NCBI GenBank assembly: GCA_964574525.1 | Contig: CAZNOE010000002.1 | Location: 1-53,269 of the forward strand | Direction of reading: 5' to 3' | Origin: an uncultured Bifidobacteriaceae bacterium | Lineage (GTDB): Bacteria > Verrucomicrobiota > Verrucomicrobiia > Limisphaerales > JADLHS01 | DNA: 53,269 nt | Part shown: piece after piece, positions 19,814-52,788 of the stretch | Numbering within the stretch: the stretch's first letter is position 1 | How the letters are laid out: each line of letters opens with the position of its first letter | Position numbers and translations under genes: made by a program | The notes under the pieces: generated by a model | Databases searched by the model: none | Told to the model about the DNA's origin: nothing | Seen by the model: the letters and a program-made list of their open reading frames with translations, nothing else

Positions 19814-20959
19814 TTATTTCCGAAGTTTGCACTTCAAGGCCAGCAGACGGCCGACCTGTTCGGCGCAACGCTCCAACATGCCGGGGCCACGTCGGGGCAG
19901 TTCCGTTTCGGCGACCGATTCTTCCAACGCGGAAAAAAACGCGGCGATGCCCGCCCGGTGGACGTTGCCAGCGTCCGGCCCAAGTGAACCGCAGATGGCA
20001 ATGACCGGGATGCCGAGCTTTTGAGCGACCCGGGCCACACCGGCCGGCGCTTTGCCAAAAATGGTCTGCCCATCGAGGCGGCCTTCGCCAGTAATAACTA
20101 GATCGCAACCAGCCAGCTTGCGTTCGAGGCCGATGGCGTGTGTGACCACATCCACACCCGGGCGCATTCGCGCCTTGAGAATGGCGTCCAGTCCCGCGCC
20201 CAAACCGCCCGCCGCTCCGGCTCCCGGCAAATTCGCGACTTCCACTCCCAAGTCATTTTGAAGGACTGCCGCCAGCCGTTTCAGGCCAGCATCAAGCTGC
20301 TTCACCATCGCCGGGGTGGCGCCCTTTTGCGGGCCGTAAACCCGGGCGGCTCCGCGCGGGCCGCACAAGGGATTATCCACGTCGCACGCCACGGAGATGG
20401 TGGTGTGTTTCAACCGCGCATCAAGCCCGGACACATCAATGCGCGCCAGCCGGACCAGCGCACCGCCACGATCCGGCAGCTCCCGGTTGCGCGCATCAAG
20501 AAATCTGGCGCCGAGAGCGCGAGCCAGCCCCATGCCGCCGTCGTTAGTGGCGCTGCCGCCAATGCCAATGACAATCTCCTGGACGCGGCGGTCCAGTGCA
20601 GCACGAATCAGTTCACCCGTGCCGCGCGAAGTGGTGAGCATCGGATTGCGCTCCGGTGGTTTGAGCAACGCCAGCCCGCTGGCCAGCGCCATTTCGATCA
20701 CGGCCGTCCGGGCGTCGCCAGTCAGGCCGAAGATGGATCGGATTTTGCGACCCAGCGGATCGGTGACGCGGCAGGGCACGGATTTACCACCGGTTGCAGC
20801 CACGATGGCCAGCAGGGTGCCGTCGCCCCCGTCGGCCATGGGAAGCTTGACGATGGAAAGGCCGCGCAACGCCTTGCGAAGGCCGCGCTCAATGCAAGCA
20901 GCGGTCTCGGCAGCGGTGAGACTGCCTTTGAAGGCATTGGGAGCGATGGCGATTCTCAC
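19814..20959 (-). CDS. Glycerate kinase (GlxK/GarK family)
   Basis: Motifs IAIAPNAFKGSLTAAE, IGGSATNDGGMG and VITGEGRLDGQTIFGKAP. Start chosen at GTG 20959 (VRIAIAP...), which gives the usual ~380-aa length. The ORF-track start at 21094 would add 45 non-conserved-looking residues, so the start is uncertain. Confidence 0.85.
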   Translation of the reverse strand: MRIAIAPNAFKGSLTAAETAACIERGLRKALRGLSIVKLPMADGGDGTLLAIVAATGGKSVPCRVTDPLGRKIRSIFGLTGDARTAVIEMALASGLALLKPPERNPMLTTSRGTGELIRAALDRRVQEIVIGIGGSATNDGGMGLARALGARFLDARNRELPDRGGALVRLARIDVSGLDARLKHTTISVACDVDNPLCGPRGAARVYGPQKGATPAMVKQLDAGLKRLAAVLQNDLGVEVANLPGAGAAGGLGAGLDAILKARMRPGVDVVTHAIGLERKLAGCDLVITGEGRLDGQTIFGKAPAGVARVAQKLGIPVIAICGSLGPDAGNVHRAGIAAFFSALEESVAETELPRRGPGMLERCAEQVGRLLALKCKLRK

Positions 20960-42835: not shown

Positions 42836-44704
42836 TCAGAGCACCAGAACCACCCAGTCCTGGTCGGCATCCGTGGGCGGTTGCCCCAAAGACACGACGC
42901 TGCCGCCTTTCACGGACTTCACCGAGCCGTCAGCGAGCTTGCCGCCGGTGCGCGGGTTGAACCACTGCACTTTGAAGTTGCCGCTCGCGCCGGTTAAATC
43001 GAGCTCGGTCGTCCCGCCGTCACGCAAGAAGACGAGGTACAGTTCACCGGACTTCGCGAAGCAGTACTTCGAGTTGTCGTTCTTCGGGTTGCCGACGAGG
43101 GCGTTGGCGTTCTTCATCTCCCAGAACGGAATCTGGTTCGCCGGGAAAAACTCCAGCGCAATACGGCAGTAATCCCAGCTCTTGTCGCGGCTGCGGTAAT
43201 CCTGACAGTCGAGATCGCTCTGCGGCAGTTTGTAACCGAAGTAATACTCCACTCCCCAGCCGCCGGCCAGCAGCGTGCCCCAGAGACAGCTCTTCCGGAC
43301 GTCGTGCATCGTGTACGGCTTTTCGGCTTGGATGCCTTCGCCGCTGTGACCTTGGTAGCCGGGGTCGGGCGGCACCCCCATGTCGGCGGGATTCTGCTCG
43401 TCGTTGGCGACGGCCCACGGCTTGCCGGCAGTGTCGGATTTGTTCAGCCACTCCAGCGTCTTCTGATGCGCGGCACTCCAACTGTACTGGATGGAAACGC
43501 CGGTGTATTTCGACTTCGGACCGAGGAGGTCGTCGAACGCCATTCCGTTGTGGATGACGACGTGGTGATGATACGGGTCGTTCTGGTAGAAATACTCCGC
43601 CATCGCCAACCGCTGAGGCGTGAGCTGTGGCGGGGTCGGCGGCTTCTCCTGCCACGGGCCGATCTCCTCGCCCATGTTCCAGTTCAAAGCAAGGTGATGG
43701 CCGAACCGCGCGATCAACTCGCGGTAGTACAGCTTCCGCTGCGGGCCGGTTTCGCCGCCGTCGAGCAGTCCCTGATTCTCCGCCTCCTGCGTTTTGAAGT
43801 GCAGGAACAATCCGAGCTTCTGCGCGTGCGCCAGCACGATCTCCCACTGCTCCAGGCGCGAGACGTCCAGATGCGCGTAATCGGTGTAGGACACGTAGGG
43901 GAACACGTTCTGATCGTCGCCAATAATGTTCATGGTGAGAAACGACACGGCGTTCGCGCCCTTGCCCGCGAGGTAATTCACCGCGCCGACGATGCCCTTG
44001 CCCTTGCCGTTCTGCCACGTCGGGTCACCCGGTTTCCAATCCTGCACGTGCGGTTTCCAATCTTTCACGAGATTGTCCTTGTGACCGTCCTTGGCGAAAT
44101 CACCGTCGAAGTCTCGGTAGGCGAGGAAATTCTCCGGGGCGTCCGCACCGGCCTTGAGGAAATACTCTTTCGTGCCGGCGAATTGCAGGTAATGCCCGCC
44201 CACGTAGGTCAACCGGCCCTTCGCGCGAAAGTCGCGCCCAGTCTTGTCGGTGGGCGTGATGTTGAAGCTGCCACTGACGGTGTCACAGCCGGCGACGGCT
44301 GTGCCCTTCGTGCTCTCGTCCACCGCCACGTTCTTGCCCTTGATGAACGACACCTTGTAAGTCCACTTGCCCGTCCTGTCGGGCGAGAGATGCGCACGCC
44401 ACTTGTTGCCGGACGCGGCTGAAGTTTCGGCCGCGTTGCCATCGGCGGCGAAGTAGCCCGGCACTTTGTAGCTGGGCGAACCGGATTCGTGGGTGAAGGT
44501 CACGTCCATCCGGTAATCGGTGAACGGATTTGACTCGTTGTCCGTCTCGGTTGCCTGCGGGCCCTCGAGCGTCAGGGTGACCTTGTGCCACTGTTTGAGT
44601 TCGCCCGAGATGGCCGGCGCGGCAGCACGGACGGCAAGGCTACCGAGCAGCGAACTGGCAAGAAGGAGGCGTAGGAACGTGAGTGAGGCGTGTGTTGTCT
44701 TCAT
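42836..44704 (-). CDS. DUF5060-domain protein with GH5-like (clan GH-A-like) catalytic-type domain, secreted
   Basis: ORF trimmed to ATG 44704 (MKTTHASLTFLRLLLASSLLGSLAVRA signal). ISGELKQWHKVTLTLEGP...NPFTDYRMDVTFTHESGSPSYKVPGYFAADG matches my recollection of DUF5060. LALNWNMGEE resembles a clan GH-A beta-4 motif. Confidence 0.65.
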   Translation of the reverse strand: MKTTHASLTFLRLLLASSLLGSLAVRAAAPAISGELKQWHKVTLTLEGPQATETDNESNPFTDYRMDVTFTHESGSPSYKVPGYFAADGNAAETSAASGNKWRAHLSPDRTGKWTYKVSFIKGKNVAVDESTKGTAVAGCDTVSGSFNITPTDKTGRDFRAKGRLTYVGGHYLQFAGTKEYFLKAGADAPENFLAYRDFDGDFAKDGHKDNLVKDWKPHVQDWKPGDPTWQNGKGKGIVGAVNYLAGKGANAVSFLTMNIIGDDQNVFPYVSYTDYAHLDVSRLEQWEIVLAHAQKLGLFLHFKTQEAENQGLLDGGETGPQRKLYYRELIARFGHHLALNWNMGEEIGPWQEKPPTPPQLTPQRLAMAEYFYQNDPYHHHVVIHNGMAFDDLLGPKSKYTGVSIQYSWSAAHQKTLEWLNKSDTAGKPWAVANDEQNPADMGVPPDPGYQGHSGEGIQAEKPYTMHDVRKSCLWGTLLAGGWGVEYYFGYKLPQSDLDCQDYRSRDKSWDYCRIALEFFPANQIPFWEMKNANALVGNPKNDNSKYCFAKSGELYLVFLRDGGTTELDLTGASGNFKVQWFNPRTGGKLADGSVKSVKGGSVVSLGQPPTDADQDWVVLVL

Positions 44705-44739: not shown

Positions 44740-46737
44740 TTAGCGGCGAATCACGACGAGCCAATCCTGCGCCGCGTCGGCGGGCGGTGGGCCCAACACC
44801 ACCTTGCCGCCGGCCTTGACGGACTTCGGAGAAGCGTCCGCCAGCGGACCACCGGAGCGCGGGTTGAACCACTGGACCGTGAAGCTGCCGCTGGCGCCGG
44901 ACATATCCAACTCGGTGGTGCCGCCGTTGGGCAAATACACCAGGTAAAGCTCACCCTCCTTGGCGAGACAGTACTTCGAGTTGTCGTCCTTCGCGTTCCC
45001 GATGAGCGCGTCGGCGCTTTTCATCTCCCAAAACGGAATCTTGTTGGCCGGGAAGAACTCCAGCGCGACGCGGGCGTAATTCCAGTTCTTGTCGCGGCTG
45101 CGCCAGTCTTCGCAGACGAGGTCGTTCTCGGGCAGTTGATAGCCGAAGTAGTATTCCACGCCCGCGCCACCCGCCATGAGATTGCCCCAAAGGGTGGCCT
45201 TGCGAATGTCATCCAGCGTGTAGCCGCGTGTCTCGGCCGACGAAGGCTCCTGCTTCTTGCCATCCTTCTTGGCATTGCCTTCCGGAGTTGGGCGGGCTCG
45301 TGCAACGCCGTCGAAACCTTGGTAACCGGGATCAGGCGGCACACCAAGGCTGGCCGGGCCTTGTTCGTCGTTGGCCACGACCCAGGCCTTGCCGGCGTCG
45401 TCAGAGGCCGTCACCCACTTAAGCGTGCGCTGGTGAACCTGTTGCCATCCATTTTGCAGTGACGCTCCGGTGAGCTGCGACTTGTCGCCCAGCAACGGCG
45501 TATAGACCTTGTCCTGCTGGGGCGGGAACGTGTGGATCACGACGTGGTGTTGATACGGATCGTTCGCGCGGATGTAGTTGATCATGTCGTTGACCTCTTC
45601 CGTGCTTTGCGTGTTCTCCTCGCCGATGTTCCAGTTCAACGCCAACTCGTGCGCGTAACGGGCAATCAACTCGCGGCAGTAGAGCTTGCGCTGCGGACCG
45701 AGCTTGCCGCCGTCGAGCGACTCGGGCACGAGGCCAGGTTCAGCCTTGTCGCCACGGCGGTCGTCGTCAATTTCCTGCTCCTGCAACTTGAAGTGGAGGT
45801 AAAGCCCCTTGGCTGTCGCGTGGTCGAACACCACGCCCCATTGATCCAGCTTCGAGCAATCCCAATGCAGCTTGTCGTTGCGACTGACGAACGGCCACAC
45901 GTTGTTGCCGTCTCCCCCGGCGTTGTAAGTTAGGAAGCTGAACGCATTCACGCCCTTGCCCGCGAGATAATTCAGCGCGCCGATCAGTCCCTTGCCCTTG
46001 CCGCCCTTCCACGTCGGGTCGCCCGCGCGCCAGTCCTGCACATGGGCTGCCCACGTCTTGAGCGGCACGTTCTTCTTGAGGGCGATGGTGTTGTCAAAGT
46101 CGGCATACGCCAGCAACGTCTCCGGTGCGTCCGCCCCCGCCTTGAGGAAATACTCCTTCGTGCCGGCAAACTGGAGATGATGTTTGCCGACGTATTGCAG
46201 CAACCCCTTGCCGCGAAAATCACGCCCGGTCTTGTCGGTCTTCGCGATCTTGAAGCTGCCACTCACGCCGTGGAACGGCTTCACCGCCGCGCCCCCGCCA
46301 TCGAGCGCCGCGTGTTTGCCGCGCGTGAACGACACGGAATACTTCCACGTGCCCGCCTTGTCCGGCGCGAGGTGCGCGCGCCATTTCGTGCCGGACTCGG
46401 CAGAGGTGTTGGCGGCATCGCCGTCGGCGGCGAAGTAGCCCGGCACTTTGTAACTCGGCGACCCCGACTCGTGCGTGAACGTCACCGTCAGATTGCAGTC
46501 CGTGAAGGGATTCGGATCGTTGTCCAGTTCGTGCGCATACGGCCCGTCGAGCGTCAGCGTGACCTTGTACCACTCCTTCAACTCACCGGAGATTTCCACC
46601 GCACCCTTGCCGTCAGCCTTGCGCGGCAACACGAGGCCTGGCGAGGCAATGGGCACGGAGGCGTCGGCCGCTTGCGCGGAAAATCCCGTTGCCAACAACA
46701 CAACGGCCAGCAGGTTTGTGAGTGTGATTCGTTTCAT
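44740..46737 (-). CDS. DUF5060-domain protein with GH5-like domain, secreted (tandem paralog)
   Basis: ORF trimmed to ATG 46737 (MKRITLTNLLAVVLLATGFSAQA signal). Collinear with 42836..44704 (ISGELKEWYKVTLTLDGP..., LALNWNIGEE). Carries an extra charged segment ARARPTPEGNAKKDGKKQEPSSAETRG. Confidence 0.65.
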   Translation of the reverse strand: MKRITLTNLLAVVLLATGFSAQAADASVPIASPGLVLPRKADGKGAVEISGELKEWYKVTLTLDGPYAHELDNDPNPFTDCNLTVTFTHESGSPSYKVPGYFAADGDAANTSAESGTKWRAHLAPDKAGTWKYSVSFTRGKHAALDGGGAAVKPFHGVSGSFKIAKTDKTGRDFRGKGLLQYVGKHHLQFAGTKEYFLKAGADAPETLLAYADFDNTIALKKNVPLKTWAAHVQDWRAGDPTWKGGKGKGLIGALNYLAGKGVNAFSFLTYNAGGDGNNVWPFVSRNDKLHWDCSKLDQWGVVFDHATAKGLYLHFKLQEQEIDDDRRGDKAEPGLVPESLDGGKLGPQRKLYCRELIARYAHELALNWNIGEENTQSTEEVNDMINYIRANDPYQHHVVIHTFPPQQDKVYTPLLGDKSQLTGASLQNGWQQVHQRTLKWVTASDDAGKAWVVANDEQGPASLGVPPDPGYQGFDGVARARPTPEGNAKKDGKKQEPSSAETRGYTLDDIRKATLWGNLMAGGAGVEYYFGYQLPENDLVCEDWRSRDKNWNYARVALEFFPANKIPFWEMKSADALIGNAKDDNSKYCLAKEGELYLVYLPNGGTTELDMSGASGSFTVQWFNPRSGGPLADASPKSVKAGGKVVLGPPPADAAQDWLVVIRR

Positions 46738-46741
46738 AAGA

Positions 46742-48196
46742 TCAAGGATTGAATTTGTTGACCGCCTCGGCGAGCGCGTGCGGCCCGCCGACGTTTCCGG
46801 GAAACACCACATACGGCAGCCCAGGAAATTTTGTCTCCGCGCCGAGTTCCCACACGGGAATCCCCGGCAAAATCTGGCCGAGCACCATCGCGCGCTTCAC
46901 ACCCAAGCCGCGCGTTGCTAGATCGCTGGAAGTGATACCGCCCTTCGCGATGAGGTAACGTGGCTTGGCCTCGATACCGCGCAGCAATTCCATCAGCGCT
47001 TCGGAAACCTGATTGCCAATCGCGAGGCTCGCCTCCGCGCCGTTGCCGGTGACGAGCGTGCGGCTGGTGAACACCACCACGTCGCGCCCGGCGCGGATTC
47101 CGGCGTTGGCCTGCTCAACAGCACGGCGCAAAACCGTCGTGCGCTGGGTCGCGTCCAAAATGTTTTTCACGCAAATCTCCACGCGCTCCACGTCACTCTT
47201 CGCCAGCAACGACTCCAGTTGCGCCGTCGTCTTCGGCACATACGAGCCGACGATGGTCAAACCGCCCCTCACCCCGTCCCTCTCCCCATCGGATGGGGAG
47301 AGGGTGGCCGCAGGCCGGGTGAGGGGTTTCCACAACGCTCTCGGCGCAAGCCCCAGCCGCGCGGCCACAAAACTTGCCGCCGTGCGATACATCAGGCGGC
47401 TGCTCGCGTTCTCCGCCTGCAACGCCGCCCACGCCAGCACTTCCAAATCGCGCGGCGCGGCGGCGTTTGCGATGCAAACCTCGCCATCGCGCAACGACAG
47501 CAGTTTCGCTTTCACTGCGTCCGGTCCGGCGACGCGCAAATCGTCGAGCGAAATGCTTTTCACTTCCACCGCCTTCACCCCGCCGCCGGTCTTTTCCTCC
47601 ACCCACGCGCGCAGATTCGAGTTGCGATAGCCAAACGCAGCGTCCCGGGCAAACGGCGTCTCCGCTGCCGGAACGAGTTCTTCGCCCTCGGCGACGTAGT
47701 GAACATCATTCACCGTGTAGCGCCCGCCCGCTTCGAAATACGGCACGAGCAACACCGGCGGCGTCTGCGTCCCGCCGCCCACAAGCGTCCGGCCCAGCGC
47801 ATCCGTCTCCGCCGGAAAATGCCCGCGCAACGTCGAATCGCTGCGGCTCACGACGACAAAATCATTTCGCCCCGGCGACCGCATCGCCGCCACGGTCAGG
47901 TTGCGCGCGATCTCCTGATTGATCCGCACCGCCTCCGCCGCCGGAAACGCGCGCGTGTTCGTCAGCAGATAAAAGCACGGCAAGTCATTTGCGAATTCGC
48001 GCGCGAGTTCCTCCGGCTTCCAAGTCGTCAACACCGGCACGCCATACACCGTCTGTGTGCCGGTGGGATCGTCATCCAGCACCACGACCTTGCGACGCGA
48101 CTTCGCCACGCCTTCCCGGATACGCGGCAACAAATCTTCCGCCCACGGCGCGGGCAGCGTCGCGAACAACGCGGATTTGTTGATCGGTGAAATCAT
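46742..48196 (-). CDS. Four-carbon acid-sugar kinase family protein (DUF1537; OtnK/DtnK/LtnK-type)
   Basis: N-terminal VVVLDDDPTGTQTV and C-terminal LIAKGGITSSD are the signatures I associate with this family. 484 aa including a palindrome-encoded insert (see repeat 47265-47326). Confidence 0.8.
   Translation of the reverse strand: MISPINKSALFATLPAPWAEDLLPRIREGVAKSRRKVVVLDDDPTGTQTVYGVPVLTTWKPEELAREFANDLPCFYLLTNTRAFPAAEAVRINQEIARNLTVAAMRSPGRNDFVVVSRSDSTLRGHFPAETDALGRTLVGGGTQTPPVLLVPYFEAGGRYTVNDVHYVAEGEELVPAAETPFARDAAFGYRNSNLRAWVEEKTGGGVKAVEVKSISLDDLRVAGPDAVKAKLLSLRDGEVCIANAAAPRDLEVLAWAALQAENASSRLMYRTAASFVAARLGLAPRALWKPLTRPAATLSPSDGERDGVRGGLTIVGSYVPKTTAQLESLLAKSDVERVEICVKNILDATQRTTVLRRAVEQANAGIRAGRDVVVFTSRTLVTGNGAEASLAIGNQVSEALMELLRGIEAKPRYLIAKGGITSSDLATRGLGVKRAMVLGQILPGIPVWELGAETKFPGLPYVVFPGNVGGPHALAEAVNKFNP
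47265..47326. repeat. 62-bp nested palindromic (REP/MITE-like) element lying in frame inside the kinase CDS
   Basis: Outer 10-bp stem cccctcaccc (47265-74) / gggtgagggg (47317-26). Inner perfect 12-bp stem ccctctccccat (47278-89) / atggggagaggg (47293-304) with a 3-nt loop. It encodes ...LTRPAATLSPSDGERDGVRG... in the gene frame. Confidence 0.7.
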
Positions 48197-48197
48197 G

Positions 48198-48587
48198 TCA
48201 CTTGCCCGTCAGCTCCACCTGCACGCCCTGCGTCGCAGTCTTGTCGAGGAACAACGCGCGTTTTCCCTGCGTGCCCTGATGCGGATTCGGCGCGGTCGGG
48301 ACGGGCGAGTTTTTCTGCGCCTCGCCCACATCCTCCACCTTGAGGCAGAAGTGATGCAGCCCAGGCCCGTTCTTTGCGAGCCACGCCTGCAACGGATGAT
48401 CCGGCGTGAGCGGTTGCACGAGCTGCAACTGCGTGTTGCCGAGATCAAGGTGCGTCAGGCGCACCGTGCTGCCGTTCACGTCCTCCGTGTAAAGCAACTT
48501 AAAGCCGAACGTGTCGCGCCAAAGTTTCAGCGCTGCCTCCGTGTCCGGCACAGCGAGGGCGAGATGGTCTAGTCCTTGATGGTTCAT
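48198..48587 (-). CDS. VOC-superfamily protein (glyoxalase / methylmalonyl-CoA-epimerase-like)
   Basis: 129 aa. Motifs LDHLALAVPDTEAALKLW, LQLVQPL, GPGLHHFCLKVEDV, GVQVELT follow the epimerase-type VOC pattern. Confidence 0.75.
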   Translation of the reverse strand: MNHQGLDHLALAVPDTEAALKLWRDTFGFKLLYTEDVNGSTVRLTHLDLGNTQLQLVQPLTPDHPLQAWLAKNGPGLHHFCLKVEDVGEAQKNSPVPTAPNPHQGTQGKRALFLDKTATQGVQVELTGK

Positions 48588-49618
48588 AGGGGTTTCACGT
48601 CAACCGGCGAACGCGTTTCCGCAGATTGGTAAACTGCTTCCTGCACCGTCAGCGTTTTCAAATACTCCTCGCCGCTCGTTTCAAACGGCTGCCCATCCAG
48701 CATCCGGTCCACAAAATGGCGCTGCGTGAAATAGCAGCAGTCGCCGCAGAAATTCACGTCGGCGCGTTGGTAGGGAAGTTCGATCTCCTTTTCTCCCAGC
48801 CGTTGCAGCGTGAGGCGGGAATCCGTTGCGAGCCGGATGCTGCCCGCGTCGCCTTCAACCAGCATTTCACCGAATGTGTAACGGGGATTGGCAGCAGTGG
48901 TTTCGTTGTAGCGGTTGGCGTCCCATTCGGCGAGCGCGCCGCCTGCGAATTCAAATACGATCAACGCTCGATCTTCGCCCTTGATCACCGGATTCAGCCG
49001 GCGATGCCAGGCCGTGACACGCGCGATTTCGCCTGCGAGGTAACGGTAGGTATCAATGAAGTGAACGCCGTTTTCAAAGACGAGCAGGCGCGGGTAGTCG
49101 CGAAAATACGGCTGTCGCGGGATGTAGGCGTTTGCACCCCAGCCGTCTCCCATGCGGGAGCGGAACGCCATCGAGTGAACTCGTCCGATGGCCCGCGCTT
49201 CAAGAAGACGTTTGATTTCCCGATACCACGGTTGAAAACGAAAATTCTCATGCACCATGAAGCGCACCTTCGCCGCCGCCGCGTCCGCGACAATGGTTTT
49301 CGCCTCCTCAAACGTCGGCGCGAGCGCCTTCTGACAAATGATGTGGACACCGCGGCGCGAAGCTTCGGCGCAAATCGCCTGATGCGAGGGCGGCGGCGTG
49401 ATGACGTCCACGAAGTCCGGCTTCTCTACATCGAACATGTCGCGGTAATCCGCGTAGCATTTATGGAGTCCAAACTTCCTGGTGATTTCGGCGGCCTTGG
49501 TCTGGTCGCGATTGCTGAAGGCGACGATTTCAACCTCGGGAATCCGCTGCCACGCCTCGTATTGGAAGTGGCTGAAGTAGCCCGCGCCGATGCACACGCC
49601 TTTAAGTTTCTTGGTCAT
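48584..49618 (-). CDS. Gfo/Idh/MocA-family oxidoreductase (cytoplasmic, no signal)
   Basis: ORF trimmed to ATG 49618 (MTKKLKGVCIGAGYFSHFQYEAW...). Rossmann-type N-terminus, DVITPPPSH. ATGA overlaps at both ends (48584-87, 49615-18). Confidence 0.75.
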   Translation of the reverse strand: MTKKLKGVCIGAGYFSHFQYEAWQRIPEVEIVAFSNRDQTKAAEITRKFGLHKCYADYRDMFDVEKPDFVDVITPPPSHQAICAEASRRGVHIICQKALAPTFEEAKTIVADAAAAKVRFMVHENFRFQPWYREIKRLLEARAIGRVHSMAFRSRMGDGWGANAYIPRQPYFRDYPRLLVFENGVHFIDTYRYLAGEIARVTAWHRRLNPVIKGEDRALIVFEFAGGALAEWDANRYNETTAANPRYTFGEMLVEGDAGSIRLATDSRLTLQRLGEKEIELPYQRADVNFCGDCCYFTQRHFVDRMLDGQPFETSGEEYLKTLTVQEAVYQSAETRSPVDVKPL

Positions 49619-50868
49619 GCTTGAATCTTTCGTCCCGGCCGCGCGAGCAGCCAGCAAATTATCGCCACGCCGCTCAACGCCGCCGCCGTGTAGAAGAAAG
49701 CCTCGTTGCCTCTCGACGATTCCGGCAGATACGCGAACGCCAGCGCCGTGATCGCCGAGCCGAGGTTGCCCGCCATGTTCATCGTGCCGCTGACTGCACC
49801 GGCGTGTTTGCCGCCGATATCTATGCAGAACGACCACGACGGACTTAGCGTCATGTCCGCGCCGAAGATGGCGATCGTCAGCCAGAACACCGCGCCCGCC
49901 GCCGTGGCCTGATGCAGACTCATCACCATGCCCAGCGCGGCGAGGAGAAATCCGGCGATGGCGGGAAGTTTCCGCGAGAGCGAAACTTGGCCGCGCTTGT
50001 AGAGAAAATCCACGAGCCAGCCGGAGAAAATATTTCCCACCGCGCCGCCGAGCAGCGGAAGCATCGCGTAGAACCCGGCGTCCACGGCGGTGAGATTGTA
50101 TTTCGTCTTCACGTAGGGATAGAGCCAGGTGAGGCTGAAGAAGAAGGTGAAGTTGCTGCCGAAGTATTGAACCATCATCAGCCAGAGATTGCCGGACGCG
50201 AACATTCTGCCCACGCGCAACGGCTCGGGCTTCGCGCTGTTCGCGCTGCCGTCCTGGCGGTTGGCGAGGATGAAGTCGAGTTCCGTTTTGGAAATGGTTT
50301 TGTGCTGCGTGGGATCATCGCGAAACCACAGCCACCAGAACGCCGCCCACGCAAAGCCGGTGAGCATCAGCACGAGGAACGCCTTGTGCCAGCCGACCTG
50401 ATGGATGAGCCACGCCACGCCGGGCATCGCCAGCGCCGCGCCGATGCGCGAGCCGGAGAAGTTGATGCCTTTGACGAGGCCGCGCTCCTTCACCGGAATC
50501 CACGAATACACCACGCGCGCCATGCCGGGAAACGCGCCCGCCTCGCCCGCGCCGAACAGAAAACGGATGACGAGCAGGCTCACGAAATTCCAAGCCGCCG
50601 CCGTCAGCCCGGTGAACACCGACCATGCCGTGACAACTGCCGTCAGGACAAAACGTCCGCCGAAGCGATCCGCCATCGCCCCGCCGGGGGTTTGAAACAG
50701 CGCGTAGCCGAACGCGAATGACGCCAGAACCCACGACCATTGCTCCTTGCTCAAGCCGAGATCTGCGGTGATGGCGTCCTTCGCCGTGGAGATACAAGCG
50801 CGGTCCACATACAGCAACACCGAGAGCAGGAACGTGCAGGTGATGAGCAGGTGGCGGCGCGCGATCAT
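49615..50868 (-). CDS. MFS transporter, anion:cation symporter (ACS)-like, acid-sugar/tartrate-transporter type
   Basis: 417 aa and multi-pass hydrophobic. LYVDRACISTAKDAITADLGLSKEQWSWVLASFAFGYALFQTPGGAMADRFGGR matches the ACS-family N-terminal signature. Confidence 0.8.
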   Translation of the reverse strand: MIARRHLLITCTFLLSVLLYVDRACISTAKDAITADLGLSKEQWSWVLASFAFGYALFQTPGGAMADRFGGRFVLTAVVTAWSVFTGLTAAAWNFVSLLVIRFLFGAGEAGAFPGMARVVYSWIPVKERGLVKGINFSGSRIGAALAMPGVAWLIHQVGWHKAFLVLMLTGFAWAAFWWLWFRDDPTQHKTISKTELDFILANRQDGSANSAKPEPLRVGRMFASGNLWLMMVQYFGSNFTFFFSLTWLYPYVKTKYNLTAVDAGFYAMLPLLGGAVGNIFSGWLVDFLYKRGQVSLSRKLPAIAGFLLAALGMVMSLHQATAAGAVFWLTIAIFGADMTLSPSWSFCIDIGGKHAGAVSGTMNMAGNLGSAITALAFAYLPESSRGNEAFFYTAAALSGVAIICWLLARPGRKIQA

Positions 50869-51536
50869 GCCAGCAGCCGCGCGAGTTCTTCCGCGGAATC
50901 ACCGCCCTCGACGGCGAACGCGCGACACGGACAGCCATCGCCACTCGCGATTTTCAGCGGCAGCGCGGCGAAGAAAACTTTTGGGCCAGTGAGTTGATCC
51001 AGATTGCAGAGTCCCTCCACAATCGTCACGCCGCCGCCGAGCAGGATTTTATGGATGCACGTCACCTCGGGCAGATTGGTCACGTCGGCGATGGAGGGCG
51101 GTTCGACACCGAGCAGCTTCACTTTGCTCGTCACGCACCAATTCGCCAGCGCGTCGCTGATGCGCGGCAGGCCGTCGCGGTAGATCGCCGGGTTGTCCAC
51201 CTGCTTGCTCCAGTCCGTGCGGAGCAAAACACTGTCGCCGGGTTGAAGTTGTCTTGCCACGTCGCCGAGACTGGCAATTTCGATCAACGCTTTCGGGGCG
51301 ATGCCGGCGAGGTTCACTAGCCAGGCGCGGCCCATGCAGCGCTGCGGCGTGTGCTGGTCAATCGTCTCCGGCCCGGCTTCGAAATGAACCTGCGCGTCCA
51401 TGTGCGTGCCGGCGTGCGAGTAGAGCGAGAGCGTGCTGGCGTTCCAGCCTTCCTTGGCCACCGAGAACTTGGGCGTGATCTCCACCCCGCGCATCCCCGG
51501 CTTGAGCGGCATCGTCAGATCAACGATGCGGTTCAT
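50865..51536 (-). CDS. Cyclase-family protein (kynurenine-formamidase-like metal hydrolase fold)
   Basis: 223 aa. HAGTHMDAQVHF (HxGTHxDxPxH-like motif). ATGA overlaps at both ends. Confidence 0.7.
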   Translation of the reverse strand: MNRIVDLTMPLKPGMRGVEITPKFSVAKEGWNASTLSLYSHAGTHMDAQVHFEAGPETIDQHTPQRCMGRAWLVNLAGIAPKALIEIASLGDVARQLQPGDSVLLRTDWSKQVDNPAIYRDGLPRISDALANWCVTSKVKLLGVEPPSIADVTNLPEVTCIHKILLGGGVTIVEGLCNLDQLTGPKVFFAALPLKIASGDGCPCRAFAVEGGDSAEELARLLA

Positions 51537-52678
51537 GTTGTGGACGCAAGTTGGGCGACGACGAGATCTCCCATCGCGCCGGTGGACAATTTACCTCGGA
51601 GATCAGGAGTGCGGTTCTCCGGCGAAGCCAGAACCTTGCCGACTGCCTGACGGATCATTTCCCCGCCGCGTGTGAGTTCCGGATGTTTGAGCCAGTCCAG
51701 CATCATGGCCACAGATAGAATCATGGCCACCGGATTGGCAATGCCTTTCCCCGCGATGTCCGGCGCCGACCCATGGGACGGTTGAAAGACGGCATGTTGG
51801 TCGCCGATGTCGGCCGACGGCGCCATGCCCATGCCGCCGACCAGGCCGGCCGCGAGATCGGAGAGGATGTCGCCGAACATGTTCTCCGTGACCATCACGT
51901 CGAAGCTGTCCGGCCGGCGCAAGAGGAATAGCGACGCGGCATCCACATAAACGCGCTCGGTTTCCACCTCGGGAAACTCGCGGGCGATTTCGTCAAAGAC
52001 CCGGCGGAAAAAAACCATGGAAGGCAGGACGTTGGCTTTGTCCACCAGTGTTACTTTGCGGCGGCGGGTGCGGGCAAGTTCGAAGGCGGAACGGAATAAA
52101 CGCTCCGAACCGTGGCGGGAGATGCGGAGCGTGTCGCAGTACTCCGTGTCCGATCCGTTGGTGGTCGAGAGCCGCGCGGAGAAAAGTCCTTCGGTGCTCT
52201 CGCGCACGATGACCAGATCAATGCCGTCGCCATTGAGGTGCTTCAGCGGCGAGTCGTTGGCATGGTAGAGCTTGATGGGCCGGATGCCGGAATACAGGTC
52301 GAGTTGCTCACGCAAATCAATCTGCGGCGTGAGTTCCTTGCCATCCGGCCAGCGGACATGGGGTAGTCCCATGGCCGACAGTAACACGGCATCCGCGGCG
52401 CGACAGGCGGCATAAGTGGATTCCGGCAGCGGATTTCCCGAACGGAGAAACTCGGCCGCGCCCGCGGCGGCTTCCTGCAATTGGAAGCGGACGCCGGCCA
52501 ATTGCCGCTCGACCGCGCGCAACACCTTCACGCCTTCCGCCATGACCTCCGGGCCAATCCCATCACCGGGCAACACCGCGATGTTCCAAGTGCTCAGCGC
52601 GGTCCCGAAAACATTCCCGGCCGCAAGATCCCCCGTTTTGGTGGGGTGATCTGCGGTTGGCATATTTATTACATTCAT
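51533..52678 (-). CDS. Isocitrate/isopropylmalate-dehydrogenase-family beta-decarboxylating dehydrogenase (tartrate / D-malate dehydrogenase-like)
   Basis: Motifs [48 protein letters not shown]. An alternative ATG lies at 52663. Confidence 0.85.
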
Positions 52679-52705
52679 CCTCGTCCTTCAAAACTCTGCC
52701 GCGAC

Positions 52706-52732
52706 TCCGCCCGCCGCGAATCGGCGGGCGGA
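52706..52732 (-). terminator. Strong hairpin downstream of the 52789.. gene (terminator-like, poor U-tract)
   Basis: 11-bp stem tccgcccgccg (52706-16) / cggcgggcgga (52722-32) with a 5-nt loop. On the minus strand a TTTT run follows only ~12 nt later. Confidence 0.4.
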
Positions 52733-52788
52733 CTTATACAGTCCCATTTCCATTTGTGACCCGGTGGTCCGGCAATACCGGCTTCCCC

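Follow-up and report, generated by a model that had tools for sequence, protein, structure and literature searches.

An operon combining a DUF1537 kinase with a dehydrogenase that lacks the catalytic tyrosine, possibly for catabolism of an acidic sugar, in an uncultured member of Verrucomicrobiota

Results

The stretch of DNA analysed here, referred to as the window, comprises the 53,269 nucleotides at positions 1 to 53,269 (forward strand) of contig CAZNOE010000002.1 in the assembly GCA_964574525.1 of an uncultured Bifidobacteriaceae bacterium (GTDB lineage Bacteria; Verrucomicrobiota; Verrucomicrobiia; Limisphaerales; JADLHS01). Six genes on its minus strand, including that of a DUF1537-family kinase, were found to form a tightly packed operon. 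In the order of transcription, these are the genes for a member of the isocitrate/isopropylmalate-dehydrogenase family (51533..52678, 381 aa; PF00180 (Iso_dh), 342 bits), hereafter the IsoDH-like enzyme; a cyclase-family, metal-dependent hydrolase (50865..51536, 223 aa; PF04199, 85.3 bits); a major facilitator superfamily (MFS) transporter of the anion:cation symporter (ACS) type (49615..50868, 417 aa; MFS_1, 192 bits); an ApsD-like NAD(P)-dependent oxidoreductase assigned by Pfam to the Gfo/Idh/MocA family (48584..49618, 344 aa), hereafter Gfo; a VOC protein resembling methylmalonyl-CoA epimerase (MMCE) (48198..48587, 129 aa; Glyoxalase_4, 59 bits); and the kinase itself (46742..48196, 484 aa; SBD_N, 178.6 bits, and NBD_C, 138.5 bits). 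Two further genes on the same strand encode secreted glycoside-hydrolase-like paralogues, the (beta/alpha)8 protein 'a' with DUF5060 and Collagen_bind_2 domains (44740..46737, 665 aa) and the protein 'b', recognized by Pfam (42836..44704, 622 aa).

Direct reading of the sequence indicated ATGA overlaps at four junctions (IsoDH/cyclase, cyclase/MFS, MFS/Gfo and Gfo/VOC), a gap of 1 nt between the VOC and kinase genes, and a gap of 4 nt between the kinase stop codon and the ATG of DUF5060 'a'. The preliminary description of this DNA had listed the same six minus-strand genes, with four ATGA overlaps and one 1-nt gap; its gene and domain identities agreed with the open reading frames (ORFs) and domain profiles, and its junctions with the sequence. 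Upstream of the IsoDH-like gene is an intergenic region of 110 nt (52679..52788, minus strand), within which the operon promoter must be located. A GC-rich hairpin inside this region is probably the terminator of the upstream gene. A consensus scan of the region detected no sigma-70-like site, and no repeats of it were found elsewhere in the window.

Conservation of this gene set was examined in a sample of 83 loci from different species, each encoding a kinase of this subfamily, by scanning the flanks for the window genes. At least two of the five partner genes were present in 25 of these loci and all five in nine, seven of which also carried a DUF5060 glycosidase gene. Altogether the glycosidase accompanied the module in 14 loci, in line with the link to the adjacent secreted enzymes that had been proposed earlier. 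When all flanking ORFs were clustered without supervision, the most frequent neighbours of the kinase were Gfo, cyclase, IsoDH, DUF5060 and MFS, and two further loci obtained by exact protein look-up gave the same picture. As the same genes recur, in part or in full, around orthologous kinases, the gene arrangement is not due to chance. In contrast, the glycerate kinase at 19814-20959 of the window, once considered as the consumer of the end product, co-occurred with the module in none of the 83 loci, and its link to the module was rejected.

Carriers of the module belong to Verrucomicrobiota, Planctomycetota (Sedimentisphaerales, Pirellulales, Thermogutta and Rhodopirellula europaea 6C), Rhodothermales and Bacteroidota. 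In Chondrinema litorale WSW3-B12, a cultured isolate from a red alga, the module is located on a plasmid (NZ_CP111045, 68271-75581) in the order GH115_C-like protein, IsoDH, weakly apiosidase-like protein, cyclase, kinase, MFS and Gfo, and a gene for a LacI-type regulator adjoins this run on the opposite strand. The order varies between loci, but the cyclase gene adjoins the IsoDH-like gene in every locus having both. The variant of Planctomycetota and Bacteroidota is IsoDH-cyclase-kinase-MFS-Gfo, without the VOC gene. The core of the module is thus composed of the transporter, Gfo, cyclase, IsoDH-like enzyme and kinase, and the VOC protein is an accessory member.

The kinase showed the architecture that defines the DUF1537 family, an N-terminal sugar-binding domain (PF07005) followed by a C-terminal nucleotide-binding domain (PF17042). 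It carries the motifs VLDDDPTGTQT and AKGGITSSD; among 12 members of its clade, DDDPTGTQ and AKGGITSSD were invariant. A palindromic in-frame stretch at window positions 47265-47326 falls in the linker between the two domains, which varies in length (orthologues are of 465-523 aa). The curated NCBIfam models DtnK (49.7 bits against a cutoff of 450), 3-OtnK (40.4 against 350) and OiaK (24.3 against 700) were all missed by far, supporting the earlier view that the kinase lies outside the DUF1537 groups then named; for these groups, it did not turn out to be a canonical kinase with its partners located elsewhere in the genome. That survey was also right in that PdxA2 and OtnC are absent here, as OtnI is too, but it left out the three-step route of the kinase 2-OtnK, to whose clade the window kinase probably belongs. 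No curated score threshold exists for the 2-OtnK group. Among PDB entries, no DUF1537 structure was found by phmmer with the kinase as a single-sequence query, and a profile made from 12 of its relatives reached 4XFM only at E = 1e-6.

By tblastn against plasmids, the window kinase was found to be 37.8% identical, over 93% of the length, to a kinase of Arthrobacter sp. StoSoilB13, of which the gene cluster includes an LtnD-like dehydrogenase, a GntP permease and an F_bP_aldolase. The best 120 clusters of homologues of the StoSoilB13 kinase were at least 85% identical to it, and the named ones were from Arthrobacter, Paenarthrobacter and other Micrococcaceae, bar two records flagged as contaminated or unclassified. 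Its orthology to the characterised 2-OtnK of Arthrobacter sp. ZBG10 was deduced from genus and cluster content, not from direct comparison; by this presumed orthology, the closest characterised relative of the window kinase is 2-OtnK. At 38% identity, however, the substrate may differ from that of 2-OtnK. Neither LtnD nor an F_bP_aldolase-type 2-OtnC was detected in the operon or in any of the nine complete loci.

When the kinase tree was rooted with PdxA-coupled kinases, the subfamily of the 83 loci and the kinases of Arthrobacter, Rhodococcus and Deinococcus formed one clade with a very long stem. The Rhodococcus and Deinococcus kinases, 44-47% identical to that of the window, are encoded in loci of the order oxidoreductase, Asp/Glu-racemase-like protein, kinase and class II aldolase. 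Clade members in Bacteroidota are located beside a class II aldolase, GntP and a DenD-like dehydrogenase; other neighbours within the clade are LtnD-like or D-2-hydroxyacid dehydrogenases, or a split transketolase together with an OtnI-like TIM-barrel isomerase. One Anaerolineaceae locus has VOC, kinase and aldolase genes in this order.

Clade members in Desulfobacterales adjoin a PanB-like enzyme and TctABC transporters. In four of these loci (L047, L050, L054 and L064), the PanB-like gene lies directly downstream of the kinase gene and an OtnI-like TIM-barrel gene upstream; TctA-type transporter genes were observed in L047 and L050, the latter of which also carries TctC, an IsoDH of the Phe type described below and a Gfo homologue. 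PanB-type chemistry, in which a 2-oxo acid with quaternary C3 gains or loses a hydroxymethyl group, would be apt for sugar acids with a branch. In two Caldilineaceae-type loci (L002 and L025), an enolase gene is located directly upstream of the clade kinase. A glycerate-kinase function of the DUF1537 protein, considered on account of this neighbour, was dropped, as the contexts with class II aldolase and LtnD and the literature on 2-OtnK explain the clade better.

For the IsoDH-like enzyme, the best NCBIfam matches were the models of isopropylmalate dehydrogenase (IPMDH) and homoisocitrate dehydrogenase (HICDH), at 314-323 bits, followed by tartrate dehydrogenase at 260 bits. It stayed below every curated equivalog cutoff (323 against 540, 315 against 353 and 260 against 470). 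Conserved motifs are DLR, GIRP, VRE, DKANV, YVDA and GDILSD. Alignment to the IPMDH structures 3U1H and 1VLC indicated that the three substrate-binding Arg, the catalytic Lys and the three metal-ligand Asp are all kept, but Phe166 occupies the position of the catalytic Tyr (VRESTEGLF in place of VRELTGGLY). The counterpart of Phe166 is Tyr139 in Thermus IPMDH and Tyr160 in Escherichia coli isocitrate dehydrogenase (ICDH), where it acts as the catalytic general acid. All of the 13 operon orthologues examined have Phe for Tyr, whereas Tyr is kept by the true LeuB of this genome, which is encoded on contig C435 and scored 495 bits (cutoff 393). Among the nearest 150 representatives at 50% clustering, Tyr was observed in 114 and Phe in 25, the Phe-bearing ones being the clade around the window enzyme. 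The intact Arg triad, Lys and Asp triad favour a dicarboxylate substrate. Positions that are Leu in IPMDH and Ser/Asn in ICDH are occupied by a polar Thr-Pro-Gln, suggesting, by analogy, a polar C3 substituent on the substrate.

The operon slot of this enzyme was found to be filled by two dehydrogenase lineages. The window type is nearest to the LeuB and HICDH (AksF) models. The second lineage, found in Chondrinema, Sedimentisphaerales and Rhodothermales, shares only 33-39% of its residues with the window type and scored 466-468 bits with the tartrate dehydrogenase model TIGR02089, against the cutoff of 470.4. The label of tartrate/D-malate-dehydrogenase-like, given in the preliminary description, thus suits the enzyme that occupies the same slot in the second lineage, but not that of the window, which scores nearer to IPMDH and HICDH. 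The two Phe clades lie in separate parts of the family, each surrounded by Tyr-bearing neighbours (support 0.96-1.0). Within the limits of a FastTree phylogeny with midpoint root, this sequence comparison indicates that the change of Tyr to Phe arose twice independently, each time in a lineage recruited to the operon, which in turn suggests that the reaction does not use, or must avoid, protonation of C3 by Tyr. The module is abundant in Planctomycetota and Verrucomicrobiota, and for its IsoDH-like enzyme alone there are more than 120 clusters at an identity of at least 66%; their database names, where given, are 3-isopropylmalate dehydrogenase or that of the generic family, and never that of a sugar-acid enzyme.

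The best NCBIfam match of the MFS transporter was TIGR00893, the D-galactonate transporter subfamily, at 248 bits and below the cutoff of 395. For Gfo, the best PDB match was 5UHW, an Agrobacterium radiobacter oxidoreductase deposited without declared function (160 bits, 31% identity, TM 0.88). Gfo was 34-35% identical to a Gfo encoded inside the D-apiose clusters of two Rhizobium plasmids, which contain annotated oiaX, a DUF1537 kinase (OiaK), TIM, RpiB, an ApnO-type PGDH_C protein, an ABC transporter and DhaKL. The fold of ApnO is KARI/6PGDH-like and not that of the PdxA family. Closer Gfo homologues (40-42%) are located in different clusters in Roseobacters and Aminobacter. The designation of the window Gfo as ApsD-like is best taken as a lead, not proof. 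In one of the two Rhizobium clusters, an unambiguous Apiosidase domain was found in a DUF5060 protein. This cytoplasmic-looking protein of Rhizobium bangladeshense plasmid p1 (L088, 16810-18330) combines DUF5060, Apiosidase (PF13204, 74 bits) and DUF5605, lies at the edge of the annotated apiose cluster beside the ABC transporter, and is a candidate for an intracellular apiosidase.

In the cyclase-family protein, the metal-binding motif H41-x3-H45-x-D47-x3-H51 could be read from the translation (HAGTHMDAQVH, residues 41-51). The arylformamidase equivalog was missed (62 against 223 bits), and the protein is distantly related to the structures of kynurenine formamidase and isatin hydrolase. From the logic of the pathway, it would be a lactonase. 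The VOC protein scored 92 bits on TIGR03081, with a cutoff of 115, and matched MMCE structures at E = 1e-15. Its gene lies directly upstream of the kinase gene, in the slot that the Asp/Glu-racemase-like gene takes in other clusters. By this analogy of position, a role as epimerase or tautomerase is suggested.

Both DUF5060 proteins of the window carry signal peptides, as judged by inspection, and are about 60% identical to each other. The Apiosidase profile PF13204 gave 19.8 bits for 'a', below its cutoff of 26.5, and single-sequence search detected no PDB match to the DUF5060 protein. An AlphaFold model of 'a' (pLDDT 84) matched in fold a GH5 mannanase, BVU_0362 and GH140 apiosidases at 13-15% identity, indicating that the DUF5060 proteins are putative glycosidases of clan GH-A. 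Against this model, the GH140 structures gave TM scores of 0.49 (query) and 0.70-0.75 (target), and the GH5 mannanase ranked higher. Membership of GH140 was rejected in view of this ranking and of the score below the PF13204 cutoff. Past the window, contig C2 encodes at 58731-63227 another DUF5060-type paralogue, the third, which shares 43-48% identity with 'a' and 'b'; it forms part of an ORF that is cut off by the end of the contig and spans at least 1498 aa.

Related genes were then located in the rest of the genome (7.3 Mb, 82% complete). Two other DUF1537 genes are present, on contigs C10 and C1066. The one on C10 (8655-10857) encodes a DtnK-like kinase (118 bits) directly beside a PdxA gene, the canonical kinase-PdxA2 pairing, with an iron-type alcohol dehydrogenase-like gene nearby. 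The one on C1066 (331-2222) is a truncated gene for an OiaK-like kinase (377 bits) adjoining a RuBisCO-like protein. As PdxA-coupled and OiaK-like kinases exist apart, the window kinase is a third, separate paralogue. Contig C82 (1974-13971) carries an ApnO-like gene, 48.5% identical to the rhizobial one, and a homologue of a 615-aa protein of the rhizobial cluster. An ApsD-like Gfo on C1246 (453-1463) is 40% identical to the rhizobial enzyme, compared with 35% for the window Gfo. With these apiose-type genes on C1246, C82 and C1066, the canonical apiose route probably exists separately in this organism. On C895 (659-2872), an MFS paralogue with 58% identity to the operon transporter comes after an Asp/Glu-racemase-like gene, and its own gene is cut short by the end of the contig. 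A single class II aldolase was found in the genome, on C891; it is housekeeping-looking and is encoded beside an amino-acid permease.

Discussion

We tentatively favour the reading that the module catabolises an acidic reducing sugar, probably apiose-like, that is, branched and carboxylated, which is freed from a glycan by the presumably co-transcribed DUF5060 glycosidases. In this scheme, the secreted glycosidases would release the anionic sugar and the ACS-type MFS transporter would import it. The ApsD-like Gfo would oxidise C1 to give a lactone, and opening of the lactone by the cyclase-family hydrolase would give a 2-hydroxy dicarboxylic acid that amounts to tartrate or malate with a C-substituent. 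The IsoDH-family enzyme would then oxidise the 2-hydroxyl and probably remove the branch carboxyl, yielding a 2-oxo-3,4-dihydroxy acid or enediol; as the Tyr general acid is missing, C3 would not be protonated in the usual way. Where present, the MMCE-like VOC protein would epimerise or tautomerise this intermediate. The 2-OtnK-like kinase would phosphorylate the terminal hydroxyl to a product resembling 2-oxo-tetronate 4-phosphate, from which an F_bP_aldolase-type enzyme encoded outside the operon would form triose phosphate.

This reading is supported by the coupling of the operon, the conservation across phyla together with a DUF5060 glycosidase in 14 loci, the kinase of the 2-OtnK-like clade and the aldolase, dehydrogenase, racemase-like or isomerase neighbours of other members of that clade, the ApsD-like Gfo, the intact dicarboxylate site, the near-tartrate dehydrogenase of the second lineage, the independent change of Tyr to Phe in both lineages and the anion-type transporter. 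The DUF5060 protein with an Apiosidase domain in a rhizobial apiose cluster also speaks for it. A 3-C-carboxy, apiose-like sugar would fit the scheme well from release to oxidative decarboxylation, since after C1 oxidation it becomes a C-substituted tartrate, which suits a near-tartrate dehydrogenase. Several points weigh against it. No natural sugar is known that suits all of the steps. Aceric acid is a 5-deoxy sugar of land plants; it fits the same first four steps, but it lacks the primary hydroxyl for the kinase, and its source contrasts with carriers that include marine Rhodopirellula, Sedimentisphaerales and a red-alga isolate. A non-decarboxylating dehydrogenase would explain the loss of Tyr more simply. 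The tie between the window kinase and 2-OtnK passes through the StoSoilB13 enzyme as a stand-in, of which the orthology to ZBG10 2-OtnK is itself presumed, and that between the glycosidase and GH140 is weak, being below the Pfam cutoff and with a GH5 mannanase fitting the fold equally well. No cyclase-family (PF04199) lactonase is documented in the literature searched. No 2-OtnC-type aldolase was found in or near the operon, and the genome, 82% complete, yielded just the housekeeping-looking class II aldolase on C891. The more specific proposal, an undescribed pathway for a branch-carboxylated apiose-like sugar (aceric acid or an unknown algal or bacterial sugar), in which a Tyr-less enzyme of the IsoDH/tartrate-dehydrogenase type removes the branch carboxyl with release of an enediol or 2-oxo acid and the 2-OtnK-like kinase funnels the product to triose phosphate, is regarded as doubtful.

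Among the alternatives, loss of the tyrosine would be natural in a fifth route for D-apiose itself, in which DUF5060 apiosidases release the sugar, Gfo is the D-apiose 1-dehydrogenase, the cyclase replaces the apionolactonase, the IsoDH-like enzyme oxidises C2 of D-apionate without decarboxylation, the kinase acts on 2-oxo-apionate, and the hydroxymethyl group is removed, or the product rearranged, by the VOC protein or another enzyme. A reaction that neither decarboxylates nor protonates C3, which is quaternary in apionate, has no need of Tyr as proton donor. Homology of Gfo to the Gfo of the rhizobial apiose cluster, the DUF5060 protein with an Apiosidase domain in the same cluster and the GH140-like fold matches of the glycosidase point in the same direction, as does the PanB-like enzyme beside the clade kinases in Desulfobacterales; the substrate of classical PanB is a 2-oxo acid with a hydroxymethyl group on quaternary C3. 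We nevertheless consider this route unlikely. Canonical apiose enzymes are already encoded elsewhere in the genome (the ApsD-like Gfo on C1246, the ApnO-like protein on C82, and the OiaK-like kinase with the RuBisCO-like protein on C1066), the transporter is of the anion type whereas apiose is neutral, and three carboxylate-binding Arg are kept although apionate has a single carboxylate. In addition, the core module has no enzyme able to rearrange an intermediate with quaternary C3, and the VOC protein is missing in half of the variants.

The change of Tyr to Phe also fits a plain, non-decarboxylating 2-dehydrogenase in a variant of tetronate catabolism. Here, the IsoDH-like enzyme would replace LtnD/DenD, the VOC protein would replace the racemase-like partner, the kinase would be a true 2-OtnK with 2-OtnC encoded elsewhere, and Gfo and the cyclase would turn a tetrose or tetronolactone into the acid. 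The clade of the kinase indeed includes clusters of LtnD/DenD, kinase and F_bP_aldolase, the VOC gene holds the slot of the racemase-like gene upstream of the kinase, the Anaerolineaceae locus joins VOC, kinase and aldolase, and an ACS transporter fits the uptake of tetronate. Such a variant, however, leaves the conserved link to secreted glycosidases unexplained and, if it is the acid that is taken up, gives no reason for a sugar 1-dehydrogenase and a hydrolase to be in the core. Glycans are not known to contain tetroses, an intact dicarboxylate site is odd for a monocarboxylate, and none of the complete loci contains the F_bP_aldolase partner; we judge this variant, too, to be improbable. 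Still less can be said for the idea of the preliminary description that an aldonic acid is first phosphorylated by the kinase, in the manner of DtnK and DenK, and that the IDH-fold enzyme replaces PdxA2 in the oxidative decarboxylation of the phospho-acid to a ketose phosphate. PdxA and IsoDH share the fold, both carry out oxidative decarboxylation of beta-hydroxyacids, and PdxA2 is absent from the operon. But the kinase is very distant from DtnK/DenK and belongs to a 2-OtnK-like clade, the metal and Arg site retained in the IsoDH-like enzyme is one for a 2-hydroxy carboxylate and not for a phosphate, PdxA2-like decarboxylation would still need a proton donor where Tyr is missing, and contig C10 of the same genome already encodes a DUF1537 kinase paired with PdxA. 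No specific support was obtained for the IDH-fold enzyme as a simple stand-in for PdxA2, and we take this idea to be very unlikely.

DUF1537 kinases mark catabolic routes of acid sugars, few of which have been solved. The module described here is tied to secreted glycosidases, and its substrate is probably a sugar for which no bacterial catabolism is known; it combines three enzyme families in roles not described for them. On the more specific proposal given above, the cyclase-family protein would be the first in its family to act as a sugar lactonase, and the DUF5060 enzymes would represent a new glycoside hydrolase specificity. The independent change of Tyr to Phe in two dehydrogenase lineages poses a clear mechanistic question, which is directly testable because cultured carriers such as C. 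litorale WSW3-B12 and R. europaea 6C exist.

The type of pathway, oxidative catabolism of an acid sugar with a DUF1537 kinase, is known. In the literature searched, neither the enzyme set of this operon, nor its link to glycosidases, nor the Tyr-less dehydrogenases were described, and nothing relevant was found on DUF5060, aceric acid catabolism or 5UHW. Four-step tetronate pathways and kinase-PdxA2 pathways for D-threonate and D-erythronate, all using DUF1537 kinases, were reportedly described by Zhang et al. (2016, PNAS 113:E4161). The window operon resembles these in the use of a DUF1537 kinase for acid-sugar catabolism, but OtnI, OtnC and PdxA2 are absent and the kinase fails three curated models. 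With the beta-decarboxylating dehydrogenases (tartrate dehydrogenase of TIGR02089, IPMDH, ICDH and HICDH), the IsoDH-like enzyme shares the fold, the Arg triad, the Lys and the Asp ligands; it differs in that Phe stands for the catalytic Tyr in every operon member of both lineages, and in that all curated cutoffs are missed.

The oxidative D-apiose pathways reportedly employ ApsD, ApnL, ApnO, OiaK and the RuBisCO-like OiaC/OiaX/OiaT (Carter et al. 2018, Nat Chem Biol 14:696, as cited in PMC13753588). The scheme from sugar through lactone, acid and oxo-acid to phosphorylation by a DUF1537 kinase is similar, Gfo resembles that of the rhizobial apiose clusters, and DUF5060 or apiosidase-like glycosidases occur with both. 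Unlike these pathways, the window operon lacks ApnO, OiaK and the RuBisCO-like protein, homologues of which are on C82 and C1066; it has an anion-type transporter, and an IsoDH-family enzyme takes the place of ApnO. In the three-step pathway for L-threonate and D-erythronate of Arthrobacter sp. ZBG10, LtnD forms 2-oxo-tetronate, which is phosphorylated by 2-OtnK, a DUF1537 kinase, and then turned into dihydroxyacetone phosphate (DHAP) by 2-OtnC, an enzyme having an F_bP_aldolase domain (Guo et al. 2024, BBRC 695:149440, as described in PMC12994016 and PMC12540250). The content of the StoSoilB13 cluster matches this description (PMC12540250, PMC12994016). In place of LtnD and 2-OtnC, the window operon carries the IsoDH-family enzyme, the cyclase, Gfo, the VOC protein and the secreted glycosidases. 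The window kinase probably belongs to the same DUF1537 clade as that of the three-step pathway, a very long branch away from the PdxA-coupled kinases, and both routes probably follow one principle, phosphorylation of a 2-oxo acid sugar.

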